IMG/VR virus record: IMGVR_UViG_3300036770_007034 | Location: 1-64,000 of that record | Reading direction: 5' to 3' (one strand) | DNA: 64,000 bases | Source of the DNA: a virus | Part shown: piece after piece, positions 42,027 through 64,000 of the stretch | Layout of the letters: each line of letters starts with the position of its first letter | Position numbering within the stretch: position 1 is the first letter of the stretch | The notes under the pieces: generated by a model | What the model saw: only the letters and a program-made list of their open reading frames with translations | What the model was told of the DNA's origin: nothing | The model's database searches: none | Translations under genes and position numbers: made by a program

Positions 42027-42176
42027 ATGGACCAAAACATGGAAGAAAACAAGCAATCTCAACCTGCTGTGAGCCCGGAATCACGTCCCAACGAGCGAGG
42101 TAGTTTTGCTGTGATGGGCCATGTAAAGATATTTGACCCTAACACCAAAGAAACTATCGTGGAGACCCGAGCATGA
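42027..42176 (+). CDS. Unannotated 49 aa protein sharing a motif with the next gene
   Basis: MDQNMEENKQSQPAVSPESRPNERGSFAVMGHVKIFDPNTKETIVETRA. CATAAATA 5 nt upstream (42014-42021); ATGA overlap with the next gene. Confidence 0.75.
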   Translation: MDQNMEENKQSQPAVSPESRPNERGSFAVMGHVKIFDPNTKETIVETRA

Positions 42177-44261: not shown

Positions 44262-44264
44262 AAG

Positions 44265-44379
44265 GAATAATTGATACCCAGCTATAAAATCAGTAAATGA
44301 CGCCTGCGGTAATCCGCTTTACTAACATAAGTAAATGTTAGAACGCCGTTTTTTATAGCGTTGATGAATCAACTAATTC
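44265..44379 (+). promoter_or_regulatory. Structured intergenic element containing late-promoter variant CATAAGTA
   Basis: Nested inverted repeats GCTATAAAA/TTTTATAGC, AGTAAA/TTTACT, GCGG-TAAT-CCGC, CTAACAT/ATGTTAG. Confidence 0.5.
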
Positions 44380-44394
44380 AAAGGGATAGATGGA

Positions 44395-45372: not shown

Positions 45373-45387
45373 TCGAAGATTTTGGAG

Positions 45388-45416
45388 AACAAAAAGGGCC
45401 TCAGGGCCCTTTTGTT
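45388..45416. terminator. Bidirectional intrinsic terminator
   Basis: AAAAGGGCC-TCAG-GGCCCTTTT followed by GTTTT. Confidence 0.85.
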
Positions 45417-45429
45417 TTGCTACATACTC

Positions 45430-45438
45430 TGTTATAAT
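45430..45438 (+). promoter_or_regulatory. Extended -10 promoter TGnTATAAT at the start of the enzyme island
   Basis: TGTTATAAT ends 5 nt before ATG 45444. Confidence 0.55.
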
Positions 45439-45443
45439 GGAGT

Positions 45444-45758
45444 ATGAACTTGGATCCAGAACAAATAGTCAAAGAGATCAAAAGCCGTTTTGATCATGCC
45501 ACGCAGAAGAAACTGCTCCGCGAAAAATATCACTCTAAGATGACCTTCGCCCATGCTGGCGGTATGTGGAAAGCCGGTCCGGAGTTGCTGACATTACTGC
45601 ATGCTTGCCCAGTAGAGGATTCTGTAGTGATCGAAGACCTCTATGGCAATCCTGTAAAGATCAACCCATTGGAGCTACAGCATCTTGCACATGGTCGCTG
45701 GCAAGAGCAGATGACTGCCTGGTTGTGCGAACTTGAAGAGTTGAGCCGTAATCGATGA
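45444..45758 (+). CDS. Hypothetical protein
   Basis: 104 aa; first gene after the terminator; ATGA coupled. Confidence 0.7.
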   Translation: MNLDPEQIVKEIKSRFDHATQKKLLREKYHSKMTFAHAGGMWKAGPELLTLLHACPVEDSVVIEDLYGNPVKINPLELQHLAHGRWQEQMTAWLCELEELSRNR

Positions 45759-46576
45759 CCCGAGGCGCAGTACTGTTTGCTTTCAACAATGATCGCGTGG
45801 ACTACGTGAGCCAAGCGCAATGGTCTGCACCTCGCATCAATCGTCATCTAGGATTGCCTGTGACCTTGGTAACAGATGTCATGCCTGATGATGTTAGTAT
45901 GTTTGATCAAGTGATTATCCGTGAAAGTCGCAGTGGCGGTACTAGGAAATATGATCACATGAATGCTGACTCATCCGCTAACTGGTATAACCGCGGTCGA
46001 TGTTCGGCCTATGATGTTACTCCGTATGACGAGACGTTGTTGCTAGACACAGATTACATAGTAAGTTCCAGTCAGCTGTTGGCGTTGTTCAATGCTGACA
46101 AAGATATCCTATGCCATCGATACGTACTAGATGTCACTGACCGAAGAAACTTTGCCAGTGATACTAGATTCGGTGATGTAGAATTTCCCATGTGGTGGGC
46201 CACAGTCGTGTACTTCCGCAAGAGCAAGGCGGCCCAATCTGTGTTTGATATGATGCGCATGATCGAAACTAATTGGTATCATTACAGTCGTATCTATAAA
46301 TTCAATCAAGATCTCTATCGCAACGACTATGCTATCAGCATCGCACTGAACACTGTGTACGGACATTTGCCTGACGCTGTGCCCAGCATACCCTGGCCTT
46401 TGTTCACAGCGTTTTATGATGTATATCTCAATCAATTAGATGATGATCGATTCCAACTCAATTACGTTCGCATGGCCGATCATCAAGAACGCCATCAGCG
46501 CATGATATTGGCAGACTGCGACCTTCATGTAATGAACAAACCCGACCTAGGAAAGATCTGTGGCAGTAGAATTTGA
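45755..46576 (+). CDS. GT-A fold glycosyltransferase
   Basis: 'VTPYDETLLLDTDY' DxD motif; 'RNDYAISIA'. Confidence 0.75.
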   Translation: MTRGAVLFAFNNDRVDYVSQAQWSAPRINRHLGLPVTLVTDVMPDDVSMFDQVIIRESRSGGTRKYDHMNADSSANWYNRGRCSAYDVTPYDETLLLDTDYIVSSSQLLALFNADKDILCHRYVLDVTDRRNFASDTRFGDVEFPMWWATVVYFRKSKAAQSVFDMMRMIETNWYHYSRIYKFNQDLYRNDYAISIALNTVYGHLPDAVPSIPWPLFTAFYDVYLNQLDDDRFQLNYVRMADHQERHQRMILADCDLHVMNKPDLGKICGSRI

Positions 46577-47378
46577 ACGCGGCTATCTCATCATAGCACA
46601 GAATACTGATGCCACTGACTACATGGCCTGTGCTCGCGCATTGGCACGCAGTTTGCGTTGGCACATGCCCGACTGCAAGATATGTTTGGTCACTGATACT
46701 CCAGAGAGTGATCCGGTATTTGACATAGTCCGCCCGTTGCCGTTTGGAGATCAAAAAGGATGGGCCAATGACTGGCAAGTGTTCGCAGCCACACCATTCC
46801 GAGAAACCATCAAGCTAGAAGCAGACATGATAGTGACCAATGATATTAGCCACTGGTGGGCATGGTTTGAACATCGAGACGTAGTGATCAGTCATGGCAT
46901 GAGGAACTATCTCAATGAGTCCAGCGAGTGTCGTGCTTATCGGCGCATGTTTGATGACAACGATCTACCAGATGTCTACAATGCCATCACGTATTGGAGG
47001 CTCAGCCGCACTGCCGCTGAGTTCTGGCAGCTGGTGCGCACATTCTTTGAGCAGTGGTCCACAGTAAGGCAGACACTCAAATACTGCGACAATGTACCGG
47101 CTAATACAGACATGATCTATGCCATGGTGGCCAAGTACATGGGCACAGAACTAGTGACTCTGCCCGCGGCCTGGCCCACGATCACGCACATGAAACCTGC
47201 TGTGAATTACCTAAAGACAGATGCACGTCCATGGAACGATGAATTCGTCTGGGAATTAGTGTCCGGAGATTTCCGTATCAACACAGTATCGCAACAAGAC
47301 ATCGTGCATTATCAAGAAAAAGCATTTGCTAAACCATTAGAGGAACATTATGGACGCCTTCTGGCAAGCCGTCGCTGA
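46560..47378 (+). CDS. GT-A fold glycosyltransferase paralog (ExD variant)
   Basis: 'ATPFRETIKLEADM', 'HMKP'; aligns by eye with the preceding gene. Confidence 0.7.
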   Translation: MAVEFERGYLIIAQNTDATDYMACARALARSLRWHMPDCKICLVTDTPESDPVFDIVRPLPFGDQKGWANDWQVFAATPFRETIKLEADMIVTNDISHWWAWFEHRDVVISHGMRNYLNESSECRAYRRMFDDNDLPDVYNAITYWRLSRTAAEFWQLVRTFFEQWSTVRQTLKYCDNVPANTDMIYAMVAKYMGTELVTLPAAWPTITHMKPAVNYLKTDARPWNDEFVWELVSGDFRINTVSQQDIVHYQEKAFAKPLEEHYGRLLASRR

Positions 47379-47700
47379 ACACGATTGGGTTCAACCCGAG
47401 ATACGTCAGGAATTTCGATTGTACTATGATACCCAAGACGGTCGTGTGCTGTTTTACAGCATGGAAGATGTTCCTGGGGATTATCTAGTGATTGACCGAC
47501 ACACGTTCGAACTGCATCGATTTGATATCAAAGTCAAGGATGGTAAAATCATCCGAGTGAAACACCCTGCTAGTTGGAAATTGGTGCCAGCAGACTCTGG
47601 TGAATATGCTTGTCATCCTCAAGACATTACCCTAATAGTACCACCAGCATCGGCACAGAAACAATACTGGAAAGTGGAGACCACACATGAAGAAGATTGA
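47350..47700 (+). CDS. Hypothetical protein
   Basis: 116 aa, overlaps both neighbours, GAGGA SD. Confidence 0.7.
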   Translation: MDAFWQAVAEHDWVQPEIRQEFRLYYDTQDGRVLFYSMEDVPGDYLVIDRHTFELHRFDIKVKDGKIIRVKHPASWKLVPADSGEYACHPQDITLIVPPASAQKQYWKVETTHEED

Positions 47701-48616
47701 TGTAGCAGATCTAGACTGCATCTACTTGAGCTATGACGAACCTCAGAAAGAAGAGTTCTGGGTCAAGATACGAAACATGGTACCTTGGGCCAAACGAGTA
47801 GATGGCGTCAAAGGGTCAGATGCCGCACACAAGGCCGCTGCTGAGGCCAGCGAAACAGATCGCTTCGTCCTTATTGACGGAGACAATATTCCGCAAGAAA
47901 AGTTCTTCAATCTCACATTAGAGTTTCCAGATGAGAGCTGGGAGCAGGCTACGTTCCGTTGGCGAGCCCGCAATCACATCAATGGATTGATGTACGGCAA
48001 TGGTGGATTGAGTTCATGGACGCGAGACTTTGTGCTCAACATGAAAACACACGAAAACACTGACGGTAAAGATGAGACCGTGGTTGAGTTTTGTTTCGAT
48101 CCACTATACTGGCCCATGCACGATTGTTATAGCACTACCTACCCTAACGGATCACCTTTCCATGCCTGGCGTGCCGGCTTCCGAGAAGGCGTGAAGATGT
48201 GTTTAGATCGTGGCCGCAAACCTTCGGTATCGGAGTTCAAAGACAGTGTACACAAACGCAACTTTGATCATCTCACTATCTGGCATAATGTAGGATCTGA
48301 TGTAGAGAATGGGTTCTGGGCCATAGCTGGCGCCCGCCAAGGCACATATATGACCATGTTGAGCGATTGGGATTACAGAGAAGTACAGTGGTTTGATACC
48401 TTAGAGAAGATCTGGGAGTCCACAGTGGCCAATCAAGATCCAGCCGGGGTGATTGACTTCTACCACGAACCCTTGAGTACACGACTTGATTTACCCATGG
48501 CATTCATGCCTCCGTTCCAGAGCGCATTTTTCAAAGATCATTATCGTAGCAACTGGCACAACCGCGGAGTGATGACTCGAGAAATAGATGTGATAAGGCA
48601 GCAAGAAGGATGGTAA
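47687..48616 (+). CDS. GT-A-like protein
   Basis: 'YLSYDEP', 'AAHKAAA..S.TDRFVLIDGDN' (DxD), 'YGNGG', 'AWRAGFREGVK'. Confidence 0.6.
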   Translation: MKKIDVADLDCIYLSYDEPQKEEFWVKIRNMVPWAKRVDGVKGSDAAHKAAAEASETDRFVLIDGDNIPQEKFFNLTLEFPDESWEQATFRWRARNHINGLMYGNGGLSSWTRDFVLNMKTHENTDGKDETVVEFCFDPLYWPMHDCYSTTYPNGSPFHAWRAGFREGVKMCLDRGRKPSVSEFKDSVHKRNFDHLTIWHNVGSDVENGFWAIAGARQGTYMTMLSDWDYREVQWFDTLEKIWESTVANQDPAGVIDFYHEPLSTRLDLPMAFMPPFQSAFFKDHYRSNWHNRGVMTREIDVIRQQEGW

Positions 48617-49596
48617 ATGTCAGAGTGATATCCAGTGATTGCAAAGTTTGGAATCGAGATCAAGTCATCGTAGAAATCGGCCATGCTATGTCTATCAATG
48701 AAGATATTACTATAGATCTCATAAGCGAGGGTCCGTGTTTTACTTCGTTGGAACTGAGCGAGTCGATCTCTCTGATGAGATCGTTGTATGACTATCAAAA
48801 AGATATATCAGTAAAGACCTGTAATCTGTCTCAACAAAGATGCGACGGATTCCAATTTGATGTCCAACCTCCCACACATTTTATAAAGAATACCAAAGAT
48901 AAGTTATCTAAAAATACCCAGACAAAACATCTTACTAAAAAGTTTGGATTGTTTATTGGCAGATCTAATGCACCTCGACTTGATCTGGCCAGTTATATTT
49001 GGAAAAATCACAAAGAAGACACCGTGATGACCTATCATTTTGATACAGAGATAGACTATCACAGAAACAATATTGGATTAGATGACTTAGTCAGATGGCA
49101 AAACACCAAAGATTTGCTTGACGCAGTTGATTTGATAAAGTCATCGCCACTGAAGTTTGAGGAAGTGAGATATCCTATACTCATGGACCAGCATTGTGAT
49201 ATCAGTCGGTTGTCAAAAGATTTTTTGATAGAGGTAGTGTGCGAAACATATTATACCGGAACAACTTTTTTCCCTACAGAAAAAATATGGAGGCCGATCA
49301 TGTCCGGATCTCCGTTTATTGTGCAAGGACCGAGATATTTTTTGCACAAACTAAGAGATCTTGGATTCAAGACATTCGATAAATGGTGGGACGAAGGATA
49401 TGGCGAAGATCCAGCCGCCTGGCAAATAACAGAAATAAAAAAAGTGATAAGTCATATCGCTTCTTTTGATTACGACACTATACAAAAATGGTATCAGGAG
49501 ATGATTCCATTGTTGGATCATAATCGCAAAAGATTTTTAGAACTGAACAAAAAAGATTTATCTTCTATCTACAAGGATTTATCAAAGTATGATTGA
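48610..49596 (+). CDS. 'TEK' family glycosyltransferase-like protein
   Basis: 'EVVCETYYTGTTFFPTEKIWRPI...PFIVQG...L..LRDLGFKTFD.WWDEGY'; AT-rich. Confidence 0.65.
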   Translation: MVNVRVISSDCKVWNRDQVIVEIGHAMSINEDITIDLISEGPCFTSLELSESISLMRSLYDYQKDISVKTCNLSQQRCDGFQFDVQPPTHFIKNTKDKLSKNTQTKHLTKKFGLFIGRSNAPRLDLASYIWKNHKEDTVMTYHFDTEIDYHRNNIGLDDLVRWQNTKDLLDAVDLIKSSPLKFEEVRYPILMDQHCDISRLSKDFLIEVVCETYYTGTTFFPTEKIWRPIMSGSPFIVQGPRYFLHKLRDLGFKTFDKWWDEGYGEDPAAWQITEIKKVISHIASFDYDTIQKWYQEMIPLLDHNRKRFLELNKKDLSSIYKDLSKYD

Positions 49597-51019
49597 TCAG
49601 AACAAAGGCGACGAAGTCGCGGCTGATTTCAAGTCTAAATTTCTCAGTGATGCTGAGATAATGAAACAACGTCTGGACTCGGTAAGTCCCAGTATGTGTC
49701 TAGCCAAATGGAAACAGGTCAGCCTTCATCTTACTACAGGACATACCAACTCCTGCTATCATCCCCCGTTGCATCGTATACGCATTGAGGATATACAGCG
49801 CGGTGGTATCGGACTTCACAATACTGAGCACAAGAAACAGCAACGGAAACTCATGATGGAAGGTACCAGGCCCTCTGAGTGCCAGTATTGCTGGAACATG
49901 GAAGACAACGGCAAGCTCAGTGATCGCCATTACCGGTCGGGCGAACCCTGGGCCGCGAAAGATTTTGAACGGATAGTCAGCGCAGATTGGAGCCAAGATG
50001 TTTTACCAAGTTATGTTGAAGTCAATTTTAGTCATGCTTGTAATCTCGCCTGTAGTTATTGCAGTCCTCAGTTTAGTAGCACGTGGCAACAGGAAGTTGA
50101 ACGGCATGGCAGCTACCCCACTTCGACGCCTCATAATGATCCCGATTATTTTCGCGGCGAGCGTCGCCCTATTCCTAGTCGTGAAGCAAATCCTTACCTA
50201 GAAGCTTTCTGGGAATGGTGGCCCACGCTGTATCCAGAACTTGAGCACTTCCGCATGACCGGTGGTGAGCCTATGATGGACAAGAACACCTTCCGGGTGT
50301 TTGATTATGTGCTGATGAACCCTAGTCCTAAACTGCATCTCAATGTCACGAGCAATTTCTCTGCAGATGAGAAACTGTGGCAACGCTACAAAGGCTATGT
50401 AAAGATGCTGTGCGACGGAGAAAAGATCGAACACTTCATGCAGTACGTGAGCCTTGACGGTTGGCTTGACAAAGCCGAATACATGCGCCACGGCCTGGAC
50501 TTTGGGTTGCTATGGAATCGAGTGAATGAGTTCTTGAGCGAGATACCCGGGCGTAGCAGTCTGACATTCATCATCACTATGAACAATCTGTCGGTGACAA
50601 GTTTTGAACAGCTCATGGTCGCTGTGCTGGGATTGAGACAGATCTATTCAAACACATATCAGCGGGTGTGGTTTGATACTCCTGTGCTCCGTACTCCCAG
50701 TTGGCAGAGCATGCAACTGTTGCCGGAGAGCTATGTAGAGAAACTGGAAGCTGTGTGGGTCTGGATGATGAAGAACATGGAGACCGAAGAAAAGCGTTTC
50801 AAAGGTTTCAAAGACTATGAACTACAACGTCTGGATAGAGATATCGCCTGGATGCGAGACGGACAGAAATTAGAGCCCGACTATATCAAACGGCAAAAAG
50901 CCGACTTCTATAGATTCTTTGCAGAGCATGACCGTCGTCGTGGTACTGATTTCCTAAAGACATTTCCTGAAATGAGTGCTTGGTGGGCAGAGTGTCAATA
51001 TCATGCCAACAACGATTGA
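49589..51019 (+). CDS. N-terminal twitch-domain radical SAM enzyme 1
   Basis: N-terminal CLAKW..SCYH..CQYCW, then CNLACSYC and GGEP. Confidence 0.9.
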   Translation: MIDQNKGDEVAADFKSKFLSDAEIMKQRLDSVSPSMCLAKWKQVSLHLTTGHTNSCYHPPLHRIRIEDIQRGGIGLHNTEHKKQQRKLMMEGTRPSECQYCWNMEDNGKLSDRHYRSGEPWAAKDFERIVSADWSQDVLPSYVEVNFSHACNLACSYCSPQFSSTWQQEVERHGSYPTSTPHNDPDYFRGERRPIPSREANPYLEAFWEWWPTLYPELEHFRMTGGEPMMDKNTFRVFDYVLMNPSPKLHLNVTSNFSADEKLWQRYKGYVKMLCDGEKIEHFMQYVSLDGWLDKAEYMRHGLDFGLLWNRVNEFLSEIPGRSSLTFIITMNNLSVTSFEQLMVAVLGLRQIYSNTYQRVWFDTPVLRTPSWQSMQLLPESYVEKLEAVWVWMMKNMETEEKRFKGFKDYELQRLDRDIAWMRDGQKLEPDYIKRQKADFYRFFAEHDRRRGTDFLKTFPEMSAWWAECQYHANND

Positions 51020-51992
51020 TCCAGATGTAGTACTGAGCTACCTAAGTTCAAACATCACTGATGCAGACTGGCGTATAATCTCAGTGAGAACTTTGCTAGA
51101 GCAGTGGCCAGAGATAGAAAAACAATTATCTCAAGGTCAGATTACAGCGGTGGAGAAAACCGACGAAGGAGTGACTACACTTTGGCATATAGTGACCAAT
51201 GTCCAGTATGCTCCTTGGATCCGTTCCGGGCAACTACGACTAATAACTAGCAGTGATGCTGATTCCAGCATTTCAAATTTCAATGCCGAACATTTCCTAG
51301 CAGCCACGATCGGTAGCCAAGAAGTTCGTTTGCCGCTGACATATACCGATCAAGCAAGGCCTTATACTTTTCTTTTCCCTAACAGAAAGATAAGACCACA
51401 TCGTAGATATCTCATATTGGAATTACAAAAAAGAATGTTGCTGGATCGCGCTCTCTGGAGCTGCCTCAAAGGGCATAACACACAAGGACATCCAGAACAT
51501 ACTCGTGTTTATGCAGATGGAATCAGTATGCCAGTAAAGAAGCTGGATGAAGGATATGATCCAGCGATCGCACCGGACTGGATAGATGGTGTGATATATC
51601 CCCAACAGTATCAACACACTTGGTTTACATTGGTATCAGAAACTGCGTTCGAATATCCTTACAGTTTCCGTACTGAAAAAATCTGGAAACCCATACTAGC
51701 AGGACATCCATTCTTGGTTTGTGCCAACACAGGATTCTATAAAGATCTGCGAAACCTGGGATTCAGGACATTTGATCGGTTGATTGATGAGTCATTTGAT
51801 AGTATAATAGATGGTAAGGATCGTCTAGATCGCTTGATTGATACTGTGGCCTGGTTATGCCAACAAGATCTTGCCGAATTCTGGCGAGCCTCGCGAGAAG
51901 TGTGTTTATATAATCACCAACGTGCTTTGGAACTACATAATAGTCTTGCTCAAAATTTTACTTCCCGACTACTGGAATTCATGAATGCCTAG
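51003..51992 (+). CDS. 'TEK' family glycosyltransferase-like protein
   Basis: Start moved to ATG 51003; 'FLFPNRKIRPHR', 'LVSETAFEYPYSFRTEKIWKPI...GFRTFD..IDESFD'. Confidence 0.65.
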   Translation: MPTTIDPDVVLSYLSSNITDADWRIISVRTLLEQWPEIEKQLSQGQITAVEKTDEGVTTLWHIVTNVQYAPWIRSGQLRLITSSDADSSISNFNAEHFLAATIGSQEVRLPLTYTDQARPYTFLFPNRKIRPHRRYLILELQKRMLLDRALWSCLKGHNTQGHPEHTRVYADGISMPVKKLDEGYDPAIAPDWIDGVIYPQQYQHTWFTLVSETAFEYPYSFRTEKIWKPILAGHPFLVCANTGFYKDLRNLGFRTFDRLIDESFDSIIDGKDRLDRLIDTVAWLCQQDLAEFWRASREVCLYNHQRALELHNSLAQNFTSRLLEFMNA

Positions 51993-53337
51993 ATTACACA
52001 ACGAAACAGACTTGGAATACAAGCGCCGAGTGATTGATATCAAATCGGAAAGTTTCTGCGGAGCCAAATGGTACAATGCCACGATCTGGCTAGGATCAGG
52101 TATGACTACCAGTTGCCATCACCCGCTGCCACACAAAGTAGAGATCTCTGAAGTTGAAACCAACCCCAAAGCATTACACAACACAGCTCGTAAAAAAGAA
52201 GAGCGCAGACAGATGCAGGCAGGGGAACGTCCCGCAGGATGCGAATATTGTTGGAAGATCGAAGACATAGGTCGAGATAACATATCAGATCGTGTATACA
52301 AGACTGTAATCTACTCAGACGAGGAACTCAATGAAGCTTATCTATTACCCCCCTCTGCGGACACAGATCTACGCACTCTTGAGATCAGTTTCGACCGTAC
52401 TTGTCAATTGGCTTGTAGCTACTGCAATCCTGCTTTCTCTAGCACTTGGGTCAAAGACATTAGAAACAATGGACCATATACCCAGTTGGTCAGCGACGGT
52501 CGTAATCACTTCACTCATGATCATGACAGTGCTCAACTTTATCGATACGGTGAAGTCAATCCGTATGTTGAGGCATTTTTCCGCTGGTGGGAAACCGACC
52601 TACATAAGACGCTTAGAGAGCTACGGATCACCGGAGGAGAACCACTCATGTCCGGATACACATGGAAACTCCTAGACTGGTTCAAGGCTAATCAAGGTCG
52701 CAGCCAAACACGTCTAGCCATCAACTCAAATCTGGCCATGCCCACAGAAGATGTGCTACGATTGCTAGACCGCGCCGAAGGTATCACTCTAGACATCTAC
52801 ACTTCTAATGAAAGCATGCCCAACCATGCTGAATATATCCGTGATGGATTGAGTTGGGGCAATTGGATGAAGAACATGCACATGCTGGCCGGTAGCCGTA
52901 GATTGCGTGGACTACATGTGATGTGTACTATCAACGCATTGTGCTTGGAATCACTTACAGAATTTTTAGATGTGATGATCAAGTTCAAAGAACAGTATGG
53001 AAGAGACTTTCCTACTTTTACTTTGAACATCCTACGTTTTCCCAGCTTCCAATCACCATTGGTATTGCCGGACAATATACGTCAGCGTCGGTGCGAAAAA
53101 TTACAAAAATGGTTCGATGATAACAAACACAATGAACTATTGCATCAGATGGAACTGAATCAAGTGCAGAGATTGATCGACTATCTCGATGTAGTCAAGA
53201 CTCCGCATAGCGATACCTTTGATCGTGCGAGCCTGCACAATGATTTCAAACGATTCTACGAACAGTATGACCAGCGTCGAGACAAATCTTTCCGAGATAC
53301 GTTTCCAGGTCTATCAGGATGGTACGACAGCCTATGA
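51985..53337 (+). CDS. N-terminal twitch-domain radical SAM enzyme 2
   Basis: CGAKW..SCHH..CEYCW; CQLACSYC; GGEP. Closest paralog of enzyme 1. Confidence 0.9.
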   Translation: MPRLHNETDLEYKRRVIDIKSESFCGAKWYNATIWLGSGMTTSCHHPLPHKVEISEVETNPKALHNTARKKEERRQMQAGERPAGCEYCWKIEDIGRDNISDRVYKTVIYSDEELNEAYLLPPSADTDLRTLEISFDRTCQLACSYCNPAFSSTWVKDIRNNGPYTQLVSDGRNHFTHDHDSAQLYRYGEVNPYVEAFFRWWETDLHKTLRELRITGGEPLMSGYTWKLLDWFKANQGRSQTRLAINSNLAMPTEDVLRLLDRAEGITLDIYTSNESMPNHAEYIRDGLSWGNWMKNMHMLAGSRRLRGLHVMCTINALCLESLTEFLDVMIKFKEQYGRDFPTFTLNILRFPSFQSPLVLPDNIRQRRCEKLQKWFDDNKHNELLHQMELNQVQRLIDYLDVVKTPHSDTFDRASLHNDFKRFYEQYDQRRDKSFRDTFPGLSGWYDSL

Positions 53338-57164: not shown

Positions 57165-58227
57165 GATCGAACTCAGGGATTTTGATACCAAATCAAAATC
57201 CAAGATCTATATCAATGTTTATGAAAACACTTTGTCAGAAAAGTGGCTGTCTTCTCTTGATGTACTGCTGAAAAATCAGTACCATCTGGAAAAAAATTAT
57301 TGTTTTTTTGGCTTCGCCGACAACAAAAGAGATGGCGAATATATCTTGGATGCTGTAAATTCCAGCATCGACGCTATCAATCGGGCCGACATTGGCTACC
57401 ACATCGACGATCATTTTGACTTGTCTACCACGCTGTATGATGGGCCCGTGGGGGAAGGTCTTCCTGGACTGAAACTCATCCATGATCGTATGAATTGGCT
57501 GCATAGGTATTTCGAAGATCTACAAGGAGTGAGCGGCCAGATATCTCAGTTCGCAAAAAAAGCTGATCCAGCAACACAATGGCACATCCGTCAACTCAAT
57601 TTGTTGTGCCATGAGTTTGAATCCTGGGCACTGAGTTATAGGAACAAGATAGTGGCTCCGCAATGGCAACGACCCAGCCAACTGATGTGTTGGCTGAACG
57701 CCCCGAGATTTGTGTTAGAACAAGACGACTATGAATTATTTGGCATTGACACTATAAACAGGCCGCTGGGCGGAGTATTTGTCGGCGTCAACAAAGCCAT
57801 CGGTAAACACCACTGGGAAGTGTTCAATGACGAAGGACGCGACAGCAGGATAGATGAATTGGTATCTACTACGCTGAGGAGCCAGACCGAAGCTGCCGGA
57901 GATTTTGACATCGAATGGGCAAACAATCCCGGCGAATTCAAATGGCAGAAAATCAAGATCGCAGAATTCCGTCAGTGGCTGATAGACAACGGCTTCGACC
58001 CCGAAGACAAGAGCCTCACGATAGGTCATCCGCAAGTGGGGCAAGTCAACTTAGAGCGCAGTTTCAAAACCACAGATTACACGACCATATGGAACACGCT
58101 CAATCAACAGTTGGACGTATGGTCGATCAAGACCAGCAATAATTATGCGGTCTATGATTATCATTGGAGCGACCCTGATTTTCAACAACGACAGATCGAT
58201 ATATTATCAAAAGGAAGACAATCATGA
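57133..58227 (+). CDS. Hypothetical protein
   Basis: 364 aa, overlapping both neighbours; no family recognised. Confidence 0.75.
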   Translation: MSGGKILDQIEIELRDFDTKSKSKIYINVYENTLSEKWLSSLDVLLKNQYHLEKNYCFFGFADNKRDGEYILDAVNSSIDAINRADIGYHIDDHFDLSTTLYDGPVGEGLPGLKLIHDRMNWLHRYFEDLQGVSGQISQFAKKADPATQWHIRQLNLLCHEFESWALSYRNKIVAPQWQRPSQLMCWLNAPRFVLEQDDYELFGIDTINRPLGGVFVGVNKAIGKHHWEVFNDEGRDSRIDELVSTTLRSQTEAAGDFDIEWANNPGEFKWQKIKIAEFRQWLIDNGFDPEDKSLTIGHPQVGQVNLERSFKTTDYTTIWNTLNQQLDVWSIKTSNNYAVYDYHWSDPDFQQRQIDILSKGRQS

Positions 58228-58325
58228 AATGGATACGCAATCTTATAAACAAAATCAAGTTAGAAATACGCTATCGCAAGAAGCTAAAAGAACTGCGCAA
58301 ACGAGATCCTTTTATCTATAAATGA
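58224..58325 (+). CDS. Unannotated 33 aa basic peptide ending DPFIYK
   Basis: MKWIRNLINKIKLEIRYRKKLKELRKRDPFIYK fills the gap exactly, with ATGA overlaps at both ends and an AAGGA SD. Confidence 0.75.
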   Translation: MKWIRNLINKIKLEIRYRKKLKELRKRDPFIYK

Positions 58326-59806
58326 AACACATACTAGGTATCAGTGCTGGGTTCCATGACGCGGCTGTGAGTGTGGTACGCGAAGATGGAGAGATCGTTT
58401 TCGCTGGGCATTCTGAACGCTACAGCAAGATCAAGAATGATCCCACGATACATCCTGATCTCTTGAAGGAATGTTGCGATTATGAGTTTGACACCGTGGC
58501 GTTCTACGAGCGTCCGTGGATGCACAACTATCAGCAATGGCGTAGTGGACAAAAGGCCTATGGTTCCTGGACTACCCGCCAAGCTATCCGTCAGCATCTA
58601 GGCGAGTGGTATCAACATCCTGCACGCCGAGAAGTCAGCTTCCGGCATCATCTCAGCCATGCTGCCGCAGGATTCCAGACGAGTACATTTGACAATGCCG
58701 CTGTTGTAGTGATCGATGCCATTGGAGAGATGGATACTATCTCCATCTATTCTGCCGGATACTCACACGACGGCAACGCTCAATATAATCTCGTATGGCG
58801 TCAAGGATACCCACACAGCATTGGGTTGTTTTACTCAGCGATAACAAAAGCCGTGGGACTCAAACCCATGGAGGAAGAATACATCACCATGGGCATGGCT
58901 GCTTATGGTACCGACCTTGGCACTGCCTGGATGCGAGATCAGTTTGTCGAGGATGTTGAAACAGCCCGGTTCAAACAAAACTTGCACATCGGATTTGACG
59001 AATACGATCTGAGTTTCACCCATGCCGAAGACATTGCCGCGTCTGCACAAAGACTCACAGAAGAGCTGATCATGAACATCATACGTCGAGCCAGGCAAAT
59101 GATCAACAGCGACAATCTCGTCTACATGGGAGGTGTAGCACTCAACTGTGTAGCGAACACTAGACTAGGACAGATATATGACAAAATATGGATCATGCCG
59201 AACCCGGGCGATGCGGGTTCCAGCCTTGGCGCAGCCGCGCTGGCTTACAGGAAACGGCTTTGCTGGCGCGATGCTTTTCTTGGCCACGATATTGCTGGCC
59301 CTTACCCTGTTCGCGACATTCTTGATCGTCTTATTACCCATCGCATTGTTGGTGTGGCTAGTGGGCGTAGTGAATTCGGTCCACGAGCACTTGGAAACCG
59401 AAGTTTATTGGCCGATCCCCGAGGACCAGACATCAAAGATCGAGTCAACGAAATCAAAAGACGACAAAAATTCCGTCCCTTCGCACCCGTCATACTAGAA
59501 GAAGTGGCTGATGATTATTTTGAAATGCCCCAAGGTTGGGCACGTAGTGATTACATGCAGATGGTAGCCAGAGTACGCAGACCGGATCTTTATCCTGCTA
59601 TCACACATGCAGATGGTACAGCCCGAGTACAGACCGTCCCTCCAGGAGATAGTGGTATCCGTAGATTACTCGAAGAGTGGTATGTACTGACAGGATGTCC
59701 AATGTTGCTCAATACTTCGTTGAACATTCGAGGCGAACCCATGGTCGATGATCGTGCTGATGCTGATCGATTTGAAAAACTATATGGCGTGGCCGTCTGT
59801 AGCTAA
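58322..59806 (+). CDS. O-carbamoyltransferase (CmcH/NodU/TobZ family)
   Basis: 'GFHDAA', 'ERYSKIKND', 'HHLSHAA', 'DAIGE', 'GGVALNCVAN', 'GDAGSSLGAA', 'EFGPRALGNRS', 'RPFAP', 'LLNTSLN'. Confidence 0.95.
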   Translation: MKHILGISAGFHDAAVSVVREDGEIVFAGHSERYSKIKNDPTIHPDLLKECCDYEFDTVAFYERPWMHNYQQWRSGQKAYGSWTTRQAIRQHLGEWYQHPARREVSFRHHLSHAAAGFQTSTFDNAAVVVIDAIGEMDTISIYSAGYSHDGNAQYNLVWRQGYPHSIGLFYSAITKAVGLKPMEEEYITMGMAAYGTDLGTAWMRDQFVEDVETARFKQNLHIGFDEYDLSFTHAEDIAASAQRLTEELIMNIIRRARQMINSDNLVYMGGVALNCVANTRLGQIYDKIWIMPNPGDAGSSLGAAALAYRKRLCWRDAFLGHDIAGPYPVRDILDRLITHRIVGVASGRSEFGPRALGNRSLLADPRGPDIKDRVNEIKRRQKFRPFAPVILEEVADDYFEMPQGWARSDYMQMVARVRRPDLYPAITHADGTARVQTVPPGDSGIRRLLEEWYVLTGCPMLLNTSLNIRGEPMVDDRADADRFEKLYGVAVCS

Positions 59807-60535
59807 TTGTTTTTCTGTCAGATACGGAATAAGATAATCCCGAGTCCAATGCAAGTATCCTGCAGGATTAGGATGACCATCGATTTCTTGCATGTTTGAT
59901 GCCCTAGCAACATCGCCTAAATAATCAATTTTGTCGATCATGGATTTTATGTTGGCACCGATAGAAACTTGACATAGATCTGGTGTAGGATCCATCCAGC
60001 TAGTAAAAATAAATTGGAATTTTTTCTGCTTCAAGTAAGATTCTAGTGCGATAATTTTCAAACAACTTTCATATATCTGAGCTGTTGGGGAAATAATTTT
60101 TTTGTACTGACGACAAAGTTTATCTATTTCCGAATTACCGTCGACTTGATTGAAGATAGACATAGTCGACCATACATCGTCGAACCTATAAGCTCCCATA
60201 TGATGCCAATCATGTACTATTTCTTTTTCAGTGATCACATCTGTTCTTGTAAGGCCAGACCACATCACGATTACTAGAGTATCATCGGGGTTGATTTCAC
60301 GATTAGTTTCAATTTCATTGATTACGCTATTGAAGATGTGATTGCTTCCGGCTCCGCTTTGGCTGCAATCATATACTTCGTCAAAGTTTGCTAAGTCTCT
60401 AAGATAGTAGGGCCAACTGCAAGCCACTGAATCATGATTATTGAAAGTAAAACTACATCCACTGACCAAAAGTTTTCTATACTTTGATTGATGGGTCGGT
60501 GCGAAGTCTCTCTGAATAATTCTTTTTTTCGCCAT
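59780..60535 (-). CDS. SGNH/GDSL-like hydrolase or acyltransferase
   Basis: Start moved to ATG 60535 (MAKKRII). Block I 'VSGCSFT', 'SGAGSN', C-terminal 'DGHPN..G' (D-x-H). Confidence 0.7.
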   Translation of the reverse strand: MAKKRIIQRDFAPTHQSKYRKLLVSGCSFTFNNHDSVACSWPYYLRDLANFDEVYDCSQSGAGSNHIFNSVINEIETNREINPDDTLVIVMWSGLTRTDVITEKEIVHDWHHMGAYRFDDVWSTMSIFNQVDGNSEIDKLCRQYKKIISPTAQIYESCLKIIALESYLKQKKFQFIFTSWMDPTPDLCQVSIGANIKSMIDKIDYLGDVARASNMQEIDGHPNPAGYLHWTRDYLIPYLTEKQLATDGHAI

Positions 60536-61563
60536 TATAGATAAGACTCTAAACCACCGCGTCGTCTGACGTCTTGGGTGCAACAACTGATACCGCCGTC
60601 CCAGAAATAACTGTGCCGCAGTTCGCAGATGATGGGCTCTATCTTGTGCTTTTTACAGAATTCAAAAACATCTCGATTATAAGCACTGAAAATCACATTC
60701 TGCTCATCTAGCACTAGGCAGTTGACATCAAACACTGTTTCAGAAACAAAACCTGTCCATTTATTGAGATAGGTATCAACAAACTCGGCGAATTGTGGAG
60801 TAGGTGTCTGTCCTTGTACATACCATCGACCGTTGAAGTTTTCTTCTTTGAACTTACCTACTTCCATGGCTGCCCATATACTCGAATCCCAAATCTTCAA
60901 TACTTCCCATCCGGGAAAGTCTGCGGCAAGATCTAGATTCACATCGTGTTTGCTGGACAGGATTACACCGGGTTTGAGGATGGCAAACACCGCATCTCCA
61001 TGTCCATCTGTGACTGCTTCATGTATGCGATACTCGGGTCCGAGCACATTGTCTACTATCCAGCGACTCTGATCCGGGCGCAAAAATTCACTGTTGTCAA
61101 AAAATACATCTCTGCCAACTCTGACTATGCAACTGGCACTGGCCCCATTTAGAATACAATCAGCATCGTAGTCATCTCCATGCGGACTGATCACTGAATC
61201 GCCGTAGGATGAGCAGATGTCATTGAGTTCTGACACTGGCAAGACTCTTAGGAGTTTTTGTCCCAGTGTTATCTGCCAATCTCTCGGAGTCAACGGAGGC
61301 AGAGGTGCCTCATGTCCTTGGGTCTGCCATTCTTGGAATTGATGGATATCCGGCAAAAAAGGTCTACGCACCACAGATCCGTATGACTCTATGGTCTTTT
61401 GTAAGTTATCGAGATCTTCGGCGGTCTCGGATAGTATCTGCTGTAGCTGATTCTTGACCTGTGCATCATTGATGAAATCAAAATACTCGGGCTCGTAAGC
61501 ACGTCCTACGATAACTTCTTCCAATGGTTGCCAGCTGGTATAACTGTTTACGATATTTTGCAT
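60535..61563 (-). CDS. Amidinotransferase (AGAT/StrB1-like, pentein fold)
   Basis: 'VNSYTSWQPLEEVIVG', 'PRD', 'GHGD', C-terminal 'GGISCCT.DVRR' with the catalytic Cys. Confidence 0.88.
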   Translation of the reverse strand: MQNIVNSYTSWQPLEEVIVGRAYEPEYFDFINDAQVKNQLQQILSETAEDLDNLQKTIESYGSVVRRPFLPDIHQFQEWQTQGHEAPLPPLTPRDWQITLGQKLLRVLPVSELNDICSSYGDSVISPHGDDYDADCILNGASASCIVRVGRDVFFDNSEFLRPDQSRWIVDNVLGPEYRIHEAVTDGHGDAVFAILKPGVILSSKHDVNLDLAADFPGWEVLKIWDSSIWAAMEVGKFKEENFNGRWYVQGQTPTPQFAEFVDTYLNKWTGFVSETVFDVNCLVLDEQNVIFSAYNRDVFEFCKKHKIEPIICELRHSYFWDGGISCCTQDVRRRGGLESYL

Positions 61564-62738
61564 GATTGTTGTATTCTGTTGAGCAAGGTACTTAACCTAT
61601 CTATCTTGGATGCCATGAATAATTCTTGATTCCATATGAGATCACTTCGGCAGCTGAGATACATCTGGTGGAGATTAGTCGCGCATAATCTTTCTACTTC
61701 TAAACAAGCTCGATTCCAGCGCTCTGTGGTATTTTCTATCTGATCATAACTGTGATCAATCACATGATCGAATGTTCTGTATCCCATGTTTCGTAATTGT
61801 TGTATACTACCTGCAGCTCCGACAAGAACGAAAGGCTGACAATGCTTGATAGGTTTGAATGTCTTTTCTGTGAGGAACACTCCGCCACTTTGATCTACAT
61901 CCATATGAGTTTCTATTACTACATTGAGATAACTGTCCGAGAAATGTTTGTCTACAGTACTGGCATAAAGGTTATGCGTAGTACTATCTAGATCATCAGC
62001 ATGGAATGGACAACTCTTCAAAAACTCTTTGGTAATGGATCGTAAATCTCCGAAGCTATCGACTTCTATAGGATTGTCATCTTCGGGTTCTCCCACAGCG
62101 ATATTGGGATTATAAGAGAAATAACTGTGTTGATGTAATCCAAGATACCAGAATCTCGCCATGGTTGTGGCTCTCCACCATTTGTGTGTTCTTACTAACG
62201 CAGTGAAATGGCGACTCCGAAGATTTTCGTGATAGTCCAATGCTGGACTTTTATTGCGTAGTTGATATAGGAATTCGTCATCAACAAAATGTGTGAACCC
62301 AGTGATAGATGAAGCCGCGCTGTTGGCGCTGGTAAATTGTATCATCTTAGGATCTATTTCGTGTTGCTGACATAATTGATCGAGATGCTCTCGTATGCGT
62401 TGAGGATTATCACCTTCGCTGTAAAAAAACCAAACAGTAAGACTCTTCGACCTAAGTTTTTCTTTGATCATAGTAGGCATGATAGAAAACCAATCAACCT
62501 CAAAATCAAAGTAACTGATGCTGATAGGATATAAAGTATGTCGGTCGGCCTGTGTCCAATCAACAAACTGATATTCTATTCCGCACCGATCAAGATATTC
62601 AAAAAAATGCACAGGTTCGCTGAATGGCCAGTTGACGCTGAACTGTCTCCACTCGGGGGTGTAAGGTCTAGCCTCCCATCGAGCGAGGTTGGGGTAAGGA
62701 CGTCCGTCTACAAATCGATCTATACAAAACTTTACCAC
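61548..62738 (-). CDS. 'TEK' family glycosyltransferase-like protein
   Basis: 'NVVIETH...FLTEKTFKPI...QPFVLVG...LRNMGYRTFDHVIDHSYD'. Confidence 0.65.
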   Translation of the reverse strand: MVKFCIDRFVDGRPYPNLARWEARPYTPEWRQFSVNWPFSEPVHFFEYLDRCGIEYQFVDWTQADRHTLYPISISYFDFEVDWFSIMPTMIKEKLRSKSLTVWFFYSEGDNPQRIREHLDQLCQQHEIDPKMIQFTSANSAASSITGFTHFVDDEFLYQLRNKSPALDYHENLRSRHFTALVRTHKWWRATTMARFWYLGLHQHSYFSYNPNIAVGEPEDDNPIEVDSFGDLRSITKEFLKSCPFHADDLDSTTHNLYASTVDKHFSDSYLNVVIETHMDVDQSGGVFLTEKTFKPIKHCQPFVLVGAAGSIQQLRNMGYRTFDHVIDHSYDQIENTTERWNRACLEVERLCATNLHQMYLSCRSDLIWNQELFMASKIDRLSTLLNRIQQSCKIS

Positions 62739-63781
62739 GACATTGCCATAGTTGATAATTCATTCCACAAGAGATCTTCAAATCCTTGTCCGTAAAACCA
62801 TTGGAAATTATGTTCGACTATAGGGACAAGATGTCTATGTAATTGTTGTTTTTCTTTTTGGGTCATATTGTGTAAATCACTCAACAATTTTCCTATACGC
62901 ATAATCCTAGCATCGTCGTTGTATTCGTCGTAGTCTTCGTTCCAAAATTCTCCAAATGTACGAAATCCGTAGCTTCTAAGATACTCCAGGCTTCCTTGAC
63001 ATGACACCAACACAAAAGGTTGTTGCATCACGATCGGCTTGAACGTTTTTTCTGTGAGGTGATGACGCCGACCTTGATACACAGTTTCTGTTACTACATG
63101 TAGCAGACTTTGATTGGCCAAAGACCACATGTCAACTTGGTGACTGTTTCCAGCATGATGCGCTCCATGATCAATCACTAATGGCAATTCTACATGTCCT
63201 AGTGGAATATCGTACTCTACACAGAGATCTCTCACATCGCGATTCTCATAAGGGCACACCGAAGGAAAACTAATCAAGTTATCTTCAACGAGTTCTCGAT
63301 CTACTAACTCGTTTAGTAGTTCTAATCTATGCCGTCTTTTTCCTCCGATGATGTTGTTGGGACAAAGGAATGTGTATTCTGGTATTCGATCTCGGAACTG
63401 AGTATAAGTCAAGATACGATTATATCCTCGATACCAGTCTAGACAAGCCCATCCGTGGAAAAAATAATATTCACTATCCCATCCGTATCTTTCACACACT
63501 GCATCAACAAATTCACTGTTTTTTTCGCTTGTGACCAATGTAGTACGACGACTACGGAATGTGTCAGCAAAACGATCTAGCGTATCGCGATGCACATCGA
63601 GATGTATGGGTTCTTGATCCCAGAACAAAAAGTTCCGCGACATCTCTTCAATATAGGGCAGTTGGCACAGCGATTCAAAGTCAGTACGACCAAAAGGATC
63701 AAAAAAATGGCTGCATTGGCCAGGTCGAGATTGTATTAGTGGAACAAAAATGTTACTATATATTTCATCGATACGAATCAT
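62732..63781 (-). CDS. 'TEK' family glycosyltransferase-like protein
   Basis: 'DQEP', 'FLCPN...KRRHR', 'HVVTETVY...LTEKTFKPI..QQPF...LRSYGFRTF..FWNEDYD'. Confidence 0.65.
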   Translation of the reverse strand: MIRIDEIYSNIFVPLIQSRPGQCSHFFDPFGRTDFESLCQLPYIEEMSRNFLFWDQEPIHLDVHRDTLDRFADTFRSRRTTLVTSEKNSEFVDAVCERYGWDSEYYFFHGWACLDWYRGYNRILTYTQFRDRIPEYTFLCPNNIIGGKRRHRLELLNELVDRELVEDNLISFPSVCPYENRDVRDLCVEYDIPLGHVELPLVIDHGAHHAGNSHQVDMWSLANQSLLHVVTETVYQGRRHHLTEKTFKPIVMQQPFVLVSCQGSLEYLRSYGFRTFGEFWNEDYDEYNDDARIMRIGKLLSDLHNMTQKEKQQLHRHLVPIVEHNFQWFYGQGFEDLLWNELSTMAMSW

Positions 63782-64000
63782 GTTTGACGTTTTTTACCTA
63801 AACAAACCCACTGGATTATTTCCACATGAGCGATCTGCTGACAGCATCGAGCATGCCTGTGAAATGTCGCGCACGAGATACTTATGGGTAGTAGACGGTC
63901 ATAATGACTATTCTCGGCACGACTGGTTGTGGGAACCTGTGCCATGGGAAGGTGAGCAGACACACGTATGGCCCAGCCAGCATCAAGAGAATGGCGGCAC
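63780..64000 (+). CDS. Partial ORF, GT-A-like repeat protein related to 47687-48616
   Basis: Not in the ORF track. MFDVFYLNKPTGLFPHERSADSIEHACEMSRTRYLWVVDGHNDY... is open to the window end; 'A...SRTRYLWVVDG' matches 'AAEASETDRFVLIDG'. Confidence 0.65.
   Translation, partial: MFDVFYLNKPTGLFPHERSADSIEHACEMSRTRYLWVVDGHNDYSRHDWLWEPVPWEGEQTHVWPSQHQENGG

Follow-up and report, generated by a model that had tools for sequence, protein, structure and literature searches.

The DNA analysed here (the window) comprises the first 64 kb (64,000 nucleotides) of an 87,059-base viral record, IMGVR_UViG_3300036770_007034 of IMG/VR, whose completeness is put at 23% by CheckV. Its nearest full-length relatives measure 317–354 kb, and two of these carry terminal repeats. 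From 45444 to its end, the window is occupied by an island of 20 genes for radical S-adenosylmethionine (radical SAM) enzymes, putative glycosyltransferases (GTs), a carbamoyltransferase (CT), an amidinotransferase (AMT) and an SGNH-like protein. It is preceded by genes for the hub and the wedge of the baseplate, for a virion structural protein of 4835 residues and for the fibre-like proteins f1–f3. The island is a real, conserved and uncharacterised module of jumbo phages, which probably tailors a glycan. Two of its aspects are new: its composite nature, revealed by the Ralstonia myovirus RsoM2USA, and a 33-residue micro-protein ending in DPFIYK that travels with the carbamoyltransferase. The features are given below, in window positions unless the record is named; bit scores for the radical SAM enzymes refer to the family model NF033640.

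44395–45372, plus strand: f3, Ser/Thr-rich (32%) fibre-like protein directly upstream of the island, candidate acceptor
45392–45413, plus strand: intrinsic-terminator hairpin and T-run between f3 and the island (terminator scan, sequence read)
45430–45438, plus strand: extended −10 element TGnTATAAT, candidate island promoter (sequence read, putative function)
45444–45758, plus strand: s104, small conserved protein, first island gene
45755–46576, plus strand: A1, GT8/glycogenin-like candidate with a DTD motif, paralog of A2
46560–47378, plus strand: A2, with an EAD motif, paralog of A1, phrog_1903 (function unknown in PHROGs)
47350–47700, plus strand: s116, small protein (from the list of open reading frames, ORFs)
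47687–48616, plus strand: B1, GT-A-like candidate with an invariant DGD
48610–49596, plus strand: C1, TEK-motif family, GT10-like candidate (by paralogy)
49589–51019, plus strand: R1, N-terminal-twitch radical SAM protein, subtype CxAKW...SC[HY]H (302.5 bits)
50976–51992, plus strand: C2, TEK-motif family (by paralogy)
51985–53337, plus strand: R2, N-terminal-twitch radical SAM protein, orthologue of RsoM2USA ORF202 (294.8 bits)
53319–54671, plus strand: R3, N-terminal-twitch radical SAM protein (418.9 bits)
54668–55879, plus strand: R4, N-terminal-twitch radical SAM protein (340.2 bits)
55869–57164, plus strand: R5, N-terminal-twitch radical SAM protein (291.8 bits)
57133–58227, plus strand: U364, conserved core protein
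58224–58325, plus strand: 33-residue basic micro-protein ending in DPFIYK, its ends overlapping the U364 stop and the start of CT through ATGA
58322–59806, plus strand: CT, NodU/TobZ-type carbamoyltransferase (Pfam, phrog_1601)
59780–60586, minus strand: SGNH-like protein (DUF6071, Pfam)
60535–61563, minus strand: AMT, amidinotransferase (profile matches in the PDB)
61548–62738, minus strand: C3, TEK-motif family (by paralogy)
62732–63781, minus strand: C4, TEK-motif family (by paralogy)
63750–64000, plus strand: start of B2, which ends at 65387 of the record and whose C-terminal domain is a B1 paralog
65384–66064 of the record, minus strand: GT25 (Pfam, 4.8e-19)
66021–67142 of the record, minus strand: DegT aminotransferase (Pfam, 3.6e-59)
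67072–68058 of the record, minus strand: sugar short-chain dehydrogenase/reductase (SDR; 2e-46)

The 15 plus-strand genes (45444–59806) follow one another in the order s104, A1, A2, s116, B1, C1, R1, C2, R2, R3, R4, R5, U364, the 33-codon ORF of the micro-protein and CT, each overlapping its neighbour by 4 to 44 nucleotides (nt) according to the ORF list and a reading of 58215–58330. Then come four minus-strand genes (SGNH-like, AMT, C3 and C4) and, from 63750, B2. The tightly coupled block that an earlier note on this DNA had described behind the fibre genes is thus confirmed, with 20 genes of which 15 overlap without a gap; it continues beyond the window to about 68058 of the record with B2, GT25, the DegT aminotransferase and the sugar SDR. 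All-against-all BLAST resolves four sets of paralogs: A1 and A2; B1 and the C-terminal part of B2; the four TEK proteins; and the five radical SAM proteins together with a sixth one (R6, 78635–80002 of the record). C1–R1 and C2–R2 constitute adjacent, overlapping gene pairs. None of the island proteins holds a transmembrane (TM)-like segment, while a symporter of the same record, used as a control, gives 11.

A scan with R3 recovered 55 viral loci from IMG/VR contigs, with protein identities of about 35–75%. The core order s104–A1–A2–(s116)–B1–...–R1–R2–R3–(R4)–R5–U364–...–CT recurs in these 55 contigs as far as they reach, and f2–f3 precede the core in the same recurrent order. The comparison of synteny that the earlier note had called for therefore reveals a kept order and not chance assortment. 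The variable components are TEK genes, SGNH-like genes, extra radical SAM genes and unknown ORFs of 180–290 residues, and the segment AMT–C3–C4 is limited to a nearer clade. Among the conserved small and core proteins, s104 is found by tblastn in 48 of the 55 loci and has a homologue in RsoM2USA (ORF354, E 1e-8); family searches with it gave no match. For s116, tblastn matches 18 of the 55 loci, and an ORF of similar size occupies the same place elsewhere. U364, present in 50 of the 55 and with 54 invariant columns, has no match in Pfam, PHROGs, NCBIfam or the PDB; its profile yields only chance-level rows against PDB sequences, and a homologue search aimed at longer proteins only returned none in which it is fused.

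Megablast of the island and tblastn of C4 gave no match among GenBank phages, and tblastn of R3 gave four records. The closest cultured phage with parts of the island is RsoM2USA (343.8 kb; MG752970), and there the island falls into two parts about 95 kb apart, which speaks against the single pathway envisaged in the earlier note. At 217–222 kb, behind fibre-like genes, this phage carries s104 (ORF354), A1, A2, ORF351, B1, an R1-like gene and B’; at 123–129 kb, it carries ORF203 (SGNH-like), ORF202 (R2; 50% identity, E 5e-168), ORF201 (SGNH-like), the DPFIYK peptide, ORF200 (SGNH-like) and ORF199 (CT; 43% identity). The island is therefore composite and not one indivisible unit. RsoM2USA differs from the phage studied here in having two radical SAM proteins instead of five or six. 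Its island-type ORFs are annotated as hypothetical and its DPFIYK peptide is unannotated, and they are not discussed in the available part of its description (PMC8504454). As RsoM2USA is cultured and carries both sub-modules, the questions raised by the island are testable at the bench. A literature search, with the supplementary tables and virion proteomics lists of RsoM2USA outside its scope, found no description of the module. The Moraphages were considered as kin and rejected, since they belong to a different lineage according to the portion of PMC12619734 at hand.

Among the firmly assigned components of the island are the radical SAM enzymes. R1–R5 score 292–419 bits on NF033640 (N_Twi_rSAM), whose curated whole-protein cut-off is 170 bits, and R6 scores 273.4 bits; a scan of the record with this model gives six places above the cut-off. 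The five twitch radical SAM proteins of the earlier note are in consequence all assigned to this family, with the auxiliary Cys module on the N-terminal side. Cysteines C45, C64, C105 and C108, followed by C159, C163 and C166 of the CxxxCxxC motif, are invariant in 10 aligned sequences. The Pfam SPASM/twitch domain precedes the Radical_SAM domain in R3 (residues 45–108 and 154–313, respectively) and R4, where it is above the cut-off, and in R5, where it reaches 20.1 bits versus a cut-off of 21.5. The array thus consists of five to six diverged paralogs of two subtypes, among which R5 shows a median identity of 73% across the 55 loci. Models of peptide maturases match these proteins at best at about E 1e-5 to 1e-7, never better than E 4e-7 and far under their cut-offs, and the matches to BlsE are weak (R4, E 2e-5; R6, E 6e-3) and far below the cut-off. 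A link with sugars is offered by the cultured Vibrio phage K566, of an unrelated lineage, in which N_Twi_rSAM genes are interleaved with genes for two proteins above the Pfam GT8 cut-off.

This family has undergone a very large expansion in at least one phage: the 342,181-base, 92% complete record G009 (that of locus L072) has 18 NF033640 matches at E ≤1e-10, most of them above the cut-off, clustered near 20–30 kb and 319–341 kb. R6 itself belongs to a second operon beyond the window (73841–80002 of the record, minus strand; L002:10841–17002), whose other products are two proteins of 309 and 396 residues, the latter of unknown kind, an ArgD-like aminotransferase of class III and a Na+/solute symporter in which 11 TM-like segments are seen. 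Phages seldom carry a membrane transporter, and this operon may feed the island.

Less defined are the GT-like proteins. The earlier note had listed GT-A and TEK proteins; the paralog sets are confirmed, but the glycosyltransferase identity is not, as A1, A2, B1 and the TEK proteins match no glycosyltransferase model of Pfam or NCBIfam and no PHROG of assigned function, and no GT fold has been confirmed. Weak similarities and DxD-type motifs nevertheless suggest that A1, A2, B1 and the four TEK proteins could be glycosyltransferase-like. The PDB profile search of A1 gives glycogenin at E 0.38–1.8, co-linear from the N-terminus through the DxD motif; hhalign of the A family against four GT8 sequences gives P 0.0048 and a probability of 7%, and 0.8% against WaaJ/WaaO alone. 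PF01501 (GT8) matches none of 20 A-family members, and Pfam scans of the A-family (20) and TEK-family (23) alignments reach no glycosyltransferase consensus. Probabilities were below 1% in hhalign against Escherichia coli K-12 templates (GT2, GT4, GT8, GT9, kinases and SDRs), a result that is uninformative and not negative because these templates are too thin.

B1 is the most conserved island protein (mean column identity 71%), and has at least 8000 relatives in public metagenomes, none of them named; the module consequently belongs to abundant environmental jumbo phages. In the protein atlas, B1 leads at 0.85–0.87 to clusters of viral GT2 (13% of members) and GT92 proteins. It has no Pfam match, and neither B1 nor the wider B family gives more than chance-level rows against PDB sequences. 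The DGD motif, invariant in B1, is replaced by FAKL in the C-terminal domain of B2, whose GT2 Pfam match is weak (17.4 bits, cut-off 23.3). The TEK family shows invariant columns R123, E224 and K225-like, a motif and an Arg that we take to resemble those of GT10, and the protein atlas, queried with the paralog C4, leads to viral GT10 at 0.80. Profile comparison of the family with PDB sequences yields chance-level rows; PF00852 (GT10), with the limit set at E 10, finds nothing anywhere in the record and matches none of 23 TEK members; and no Pfam domain appears among the 120 listed of its 576 relatives.

The chemistry of sugars is also indicated by the genes beyond the window end. The earlier note had seen no nucleotide-sugar genes in the window, which is correct; DegT and SDR sit 2–4 kb past it. 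The nearest matches of DegT are transaminases acting at C4 of sugars, PseC and WecE among them, with a DesI match of 95 bits, and those of the SDR are structures of dTDP-glucose 4,6-dehydratase and UDP-sugar epimerase/decarboxylase. Whole-genome searches for gene presence were performed in five near-complete relatives, in all of which the order B2–DegT–SDR–s83–thymidylate synthase is kept and three to four epimerase-type SDRs are found. NTP_transferase was found in none of the five, and GMD gave no match above the cut-off. Bac_transf was also absent from all five (its control was positive in 10 of 14; the WecA/MraY type was outside the search), so that, together with the lack of TM-like segments in the island, no trace was obtained of a surface polysaccharide pathway of the lipid-carrier kind that these searches covered. 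With regard to the thymidylate synthase, ThyX (68304–68978 of the record) follows SDR–s83 in most relatives, and a ThyA-type gene occupies the same position in G005 (65617–66519), which reads as a non-orthologous replacement at a fixed locus.

The lack of TM segments, the presence of DegT, SDR, GT25 and AMT, the GT8 proteins of K566 and the C–R gene pairs together suggest that a glycan is assembled by soluble enzymes from nucleotide sugars and edited by radical chemistry. The sugar chemistry proposed in the earlier note is in this way strengthened, by DegT and SDR adjoining the island in five of five near-complete relatives and by GT8 proteins occurring with radical SAM proteins in K566.

AMT has no Pfam match at E 0.01, and its PDB profile finds AGAT (7.8e-18), HsvA (6.8e-14), StrB1 (2.9e-13) and SxtG (1.6e-12) with the catalytic Cys and His aligned: its GGISCCT aligns to GGFHCWT, and its GHGDAVF to PHIDATF. 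The amidinotransferase recognised in the earlier note is in this manner upheld by the profile matches and by catalytic residues in place; tblastn finds it in 13 of the 55 loci. The SGNH-like protein also stands, with a DUF6071 match of 32.3 bits (cut-off 27) and with the block I Ser and the block V His invariant (G43, S45 and H238 in 14 sequences). Its similarity to GDSL entries of the PDB is weak (E 0.0044–0.43), and DUF6071 would belong to the SGNH fold. This ORF is listed from a TTG that lies 17 codons ahead of an ATG (MAKKR...); a start at the ATG would abut the AMT stop, and the TTG start overlaps by 52 nt. The aminoglycoside and saxitoxin parallels drawn in the earlier note hold as a resemblance of families, with nothing beyond the family level.

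CT, the O-carbamoyltransferase of the earlier note, belongs with the NodU/CmcH/TobZ carbamoyltransferases: both domains of the Pfam pair PF02543 and PF16861 are above their cut-offs (Carbam_trans_N, 1.4e-36, 127.1 bits, cut-off 24; Carbam_trans_C, 6.8e-49, 166.1 bits, cut-off 27), and it matches phrog_1601 at 2e-96. An identity with NodU itself was rejected, as the NodU equivalog gives 138.8 bits against a cut-off of 1000. The micro-protein encoded immediately upstream of CT is under strong selection at the amino-acid level. Across 39 distinct DNA versions, its final 21 residues hardly change, and L13, Y17, R18, L21, L24, D28, P29, F30, Y32 and K33 are invariant, while the codons vary freely (up to six synonymous codons per site). 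It is highly basic, with 13 Lys/Arg, three Asp/Glu and a net charge near +10. It was found in 46 of the 55 loci, and the remaining ones end too early, except for one complete locus (L057) that lacks both CT and the micro-protein.

A scan for the DPFIYK pattern gave at least 120 viral stretches, from which 80 loci were retrieved. CT starts within 40 nt of the micro-protein in 38 of them and within 3 kb in 24 more; three have CT elsewhere in the locus, six offer under 1.5 kb of downstream sequence, and nine offer at least that much and have no CT. The context is island-type in 19 loci, other in 28, and lies between primase-like and gp41-like helicase genes in 33 (tblastn), 30 of which have CT downstream; in the contig tested, the gene on one side of the pair is primase-like (E 3.6e-4) and that on the other encodes a DnaB/gp41-like helicase (7.6e-29). 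In such loci (among L069–L148; for example, L108:6214–10199) the pair is far from any radical SAM gene within the locus. CT thus moves as a two-gene cassette with the micro-protein, also to a site between primase and helicase genes, so that its place in a glycan pathway is an assumption, and a nucleic acid or a peptide fits as its substrate as well as a sugar. The contigs that bear the micro-protein are mostly fragments, which CheckV scales to about 350 kb, and they probably represent sister lineages and not unrelated phages. Among 1.84 billion representatives, a search found 90 DPFIYK clusters of 32–156 residues, with the match C-terminal in nearly all. A fusion of CT to the micro-protein was considered and rejected, since none of the 90 representatives exceeds 156 residues or contains an enzyme. 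Other arrangements are tandem double DPFIYK units in one short predicted ORF (P0242 and P0241) and frames that continue past DPFIYK (P0289 and P0302). In L073, L084 and L135, DPFIYK forms the tail of a protein that has about 70–95 residues and the Cys/His-rich stretch CSCGH..HC..C.DCRCEHCNCP, and no carbamoyltransferase is found in the 2.8–6 kb downstream. The candidate roles of the micro-protein are those of a CT subunit, an acceptor or carrier, and a tether to nucleic acid or the replisome.

These data invite a peptide-centred explanation for part of the island, in which the micro-protein would be a substrate or carrier: CT would carbamoylate Tyr32 or Lys33, and R2 and the SGNH-like proteins would process it further into a modified peptide or small molecule. 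Pyrroloquinoline quinone and mycofactocin are both peptide-derived, and mycofactocin is glycosylated as well. The selection on the 39 DNA versions, the tie to CT across three gene contexts, the joint absence of both from L057, the tandem units of P0242 and the order SGNH–R2–SGNH–peptide–SGNH–CT of RsoM2USA, apart from the GT-like genes, are all in line with it, and a variable N-terminal helix with an invariant C-terminal hexapeptide resembles a leader plus a core. Nevertheless, the conserved part contains no Cys, Ser or Thr; the radical SAM proteins fall outside the maturase families that bear a precursor-peptide recognition element (RRE), far below the model cut-offs; no enzyme fusion was found among the 90 representatives, the longest of which has 156 residues; nine of the 80 loci have the micro-protein and no CT in at least 1.5 kb downstream; and the charge near +10 equally fits a helix docking to nucleic acid or protein. 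It also leaves DegT, SDR, GT25 and AMT unexplained. This explanation is considered unlikely.

The basic micro-protein and the 33 primase/helicase loci bear as well on the modification of nucleic acids. T4 is known to glucosylate hydroxymethylcytosine (hmC). By analogy, the GT-like enzymes and CT might decorate modified bases of the phage genome, or RNA, against restriction, with the peptide tethering CT to nucleic acid or the replisome. We know of no part played by sugar aminotransferases, amidinotransferases or five radical SAM enzymes in DNA base modification of this kind. A phage carbamoyltransferase with the same Pfam architecture modifies 5hmC in DNA and RNA, as stated in the part of PMC8670742 available, where carbamoyltransferases are also reported on unmodified contigs flanked by glycosyltransferases, which counts against a role of CT on DNA. 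ThyX adjoins the island, and a sigma70-type promoter in front of it (see below) would permit early expression. However, the partner that defines such a system, a ThyA-like hydroxymethylase (PF00303), is missing from four of the five near-complete relatives, and PF00303 is found in just four of 44 other peptide-bearing records, which are mostly fragments. The only PF00303 gene among the five, that of G005, sits at the ThyX position; it reads as an ordinary thymidylate synthase swap and was rejected as a mark of hydroxymethylation. Tet_JBP was found in none of the five relatives, which has little weight because its control matched nowhere. Modification of DNA is, in view of these data, disfavoured, and appears quite improbable.

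Transcription signals separate the island from the fibre genes. The hairpin at 45392–45413 is the best-ranked and sole intergenic terminator-like site within 44001–64000, and the TGnTATAAT element (45430–45438) ends 5 nt ahead of the s104 ATG, as a candidate island promoter that would give a near-leaderless mRNA. Among 31 distinct f3–s104 spacers of relatives, a hairpin with a T-run occurs in 23, a TAnAAT hexamer in 16 and, as read from the printed sequences, TTGACA at promoter distance in 13; either TGnTATAAT or TTGACA-N17-TATAAT/TATACT is repeated in relatives. The island accordingly appears to be a transcription unit of its own, with a terminator in front and a sigma70-type promoter. TATAAATA has no occurrence in the window. 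ATAAATA occurs eight times in the 87-kb record, several times directly before structural genes, and is absent from the island; this count is not above chance, which makes a link with late promoters a mere hint, and the motif may be the core of the late promoters of the phage. Its sites include 24066, 42015 and 42772 (plus strand) and 7416 (minus strand) of the window, and the baseplate wedge gene, f2 and a 790-residue minus-strand gene start 24–56 nt downstream of it.

A host-type promoter would also suit a diffusible or host-directed product, that is, a free aminoglycoside- or cyclitol-like glycoside, or a modified precursor of the host cytoplasm or envelope, with takeover of the host, exclusion of superinfecting phages or competition as its purpose. 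Aminoglycoside pathways employ the same families, namely twitch radical SAM, DegT, amidinotransferase and carbamoyltransferase (matched at the family level by StrB1 and NodU), and the second operon adds the sixth N_Twi_rSAM protein, the Na+/solute symporter and the aminotransferase of class III. Little credence is nonetheless given to this alternative, because the island contains no exporter, resistance gene, cyclitol synthase or membrane enzyme, Bac_transf is absent from the five relatives, and the block is fixed behind fibre genes across the 55 contigs.

This fixed position directs attention to the fibres. The Ser/Thr content is 32% in f3, 21% in f2 and 15% in the 4835-residue protein, so that the description of Ser/Thr-rich fibre genes in the earlier note applies to f3 and f2 and not to the large protein. 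The median Ser/Thr fraction is 0.28 in f3 homologues (n = 40) versus 0.12 in other ORFs (n = 787), just four of which reach 0.25. Because the gene upstream is consistently Ser/Thr-rich, virion decoration, the target suggested in that note, is still the leading one; the island is not simply co-transcribed with the fibres. Upstream of f1, at 42100–42175, a short frame with MGHVKIFDPNTKETIVE resembles residues 11–24 of f1 (FVKIFDPNTQEIFV), and may be a duplicated or alternative f1 N-terminus.

Glycan assembly in the cytoplasm combined with radical editing, probably on the upstream Ser/Thr-rich fibre protein, is the reading that we tentatively prefer, although it falls narrowly short of being probable as a whole; the virion fibre, taken as a target in itself, is possible and not yet probable. 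The evidence for decoration is positional, and comes from the Ser/Thr-rich f3 homologues and from the fibre-like genes that precede A1–A2–B1–R1 in RsoM2USA. The scheme starts from the gene content, the families of the radical SAM proteins, CT, AMT, DegT, SDR and GT25, the synteny and the solubility described above, and predicts the reactions, the GT folds, the order of the steps and the acceptor. A composite set of soluble, separately transcribed enzymes would build an unusual, edited glycan in the cytoplasm of the infected cell. Host nucleotide sugars would be the starting material, as these phages lack a sugar-1-phosphate nucleotidyltransferase, and the SDR and the DegT aminotransferase would convert them into a nucleotide-linked amino sugar. 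The GT-like proteins (the glycogenin-like A1/A2, the GT-A-like B1/B2, the four GT10-like TEK proteins and GT25) would transfer sugars onto the acceptor. Each of the five radical SAM paralogs would edit a sugar at an unactivated C–H position, epimerising, oxidising or deoxygenating it or changing it in a similar way, and the two encoded directly behind TEK genes would form transferase–editor pairs. The amidinotransferase would turn a sugar amine into a guanidino group, while carbamoyl or acyl groups would be put on or taken off by CT, together with its partner of 33 residues, and by the SGNH-like protein. The fibre f3 of the phage itself (and f2) would be the likeliest acceptor.

Several observations weigh against this preferred reading. 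No GT model matches A1, A2, B1 or the TEK proteins, and the hhalign and PF00852 searches described above lend them no help. No reaction was found in the literature for the NF033640 family, which is large, and N_Twi_rSAM is above the cut-off in none of 14 model genomes. The terminator splits the island from the fibre genes, the promoter is of the sigma70 type and the late-like ATAAATA motifs are absent from the island, so that the adjacency of island and fibres does not amount to co-expression. The island is composite; the primase/helicase setting of 33 of the 80 micro-protein loci admits substrates of CT other than sugars; and in RsoM2USA the gene ahead of the module (ORF355) has a Ser/Thr content of 20%.

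A bolder, two-part version, to which we assign a low probability, holds that the radical SAM proteins are post-glycosylation editors and that the DPFIYK gene and CT form a mobile and self-contained cassette for peptide-dependent carbamoyl transfer in jumbo phages. If it is true, pairs of radical SAM enzymes and transferases would make rare sugars out of common ones of the host, directly on a fibre glycoprotein of the virion, creating a phage glycan unmet by any host enzyme or antibody, and the cassette would follow a HypF/HypE-like logic, with its invariant C-terminal Tyr-Lys as acceptor or carrier. The cassette also includes an unannotated micro-protein gene, skipped by standard pipelines, and bears on how phage carbamoyltransferases work. 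According to the accessible part of PMC3037559, these enzymes are usually listed as “auxiliary metabolic genes”.

Compared with known systems, the closest family is NF033640, shared by all five radical SAM proteins of the window and R6, including a four-Cys auxiliary module ahead of CxxxCxxC. The twitch radical SAM enzymes that act on sugars in aminoglycoside and nucleoside pathways, such as BtrN, NeoN, HygY and BlsE, as well as DesII with DesI, have one auxiliary cluster and are paired with DegT-type aminotransferases. In contrast to the island proteins, whose twitch is N-terminal, those enzymes have it at the C-terminus, and there is no orthology between the two sets. The coupling of CT to a micro-protein with an invariant C-terminus recalls HypF, with its YrdC-like and Kae1-like parts, which carbamoylates the invariant C-terminal Cys of HypE. 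HypE, however, has 330 residues and ends in Cys, whereas the putative partner here has 33 and ends in Tyr-Lys.

Another relative of CT is the metagenomic 5hmC carbamoyltransferase; in the available part of PMC8670742, it produces 5-carbamoyloxymethylcytosine and has a ThyA-like dCMP hydroxymethylase as its defining partner. It shares with CT the two Pfam domains and the origin from phage contigs, and that part of the paper mentions no upstream micro-protein. With respect to decorated virions, it has been reported that phage glycosyltransferases attach sugars to proteins of the capsid and tail in mycobacteriophages (Freeman et al. 2023, Cell Host Microbe 31:1216, as cited in the portion of PMC12619734 at hand). 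The likeness to the island lies in transferase genes beside structural genes and in Ser/Thr-rich virion proteins as likely acceptors; those systems rely on few GTs, and at the island glycosylation is predicted from genes. To our knowledge, they include no radical SAM, carbamoyl-transferring, amidino-transferring or amino-sugar enzymes. Virus-encoded glycan machineries are known in giant viruses, and we know of none that uses radical SAM arrays; a machinery of this kind, combining such an array with a peptide–CT cassette, would be the novel aspect of the island.

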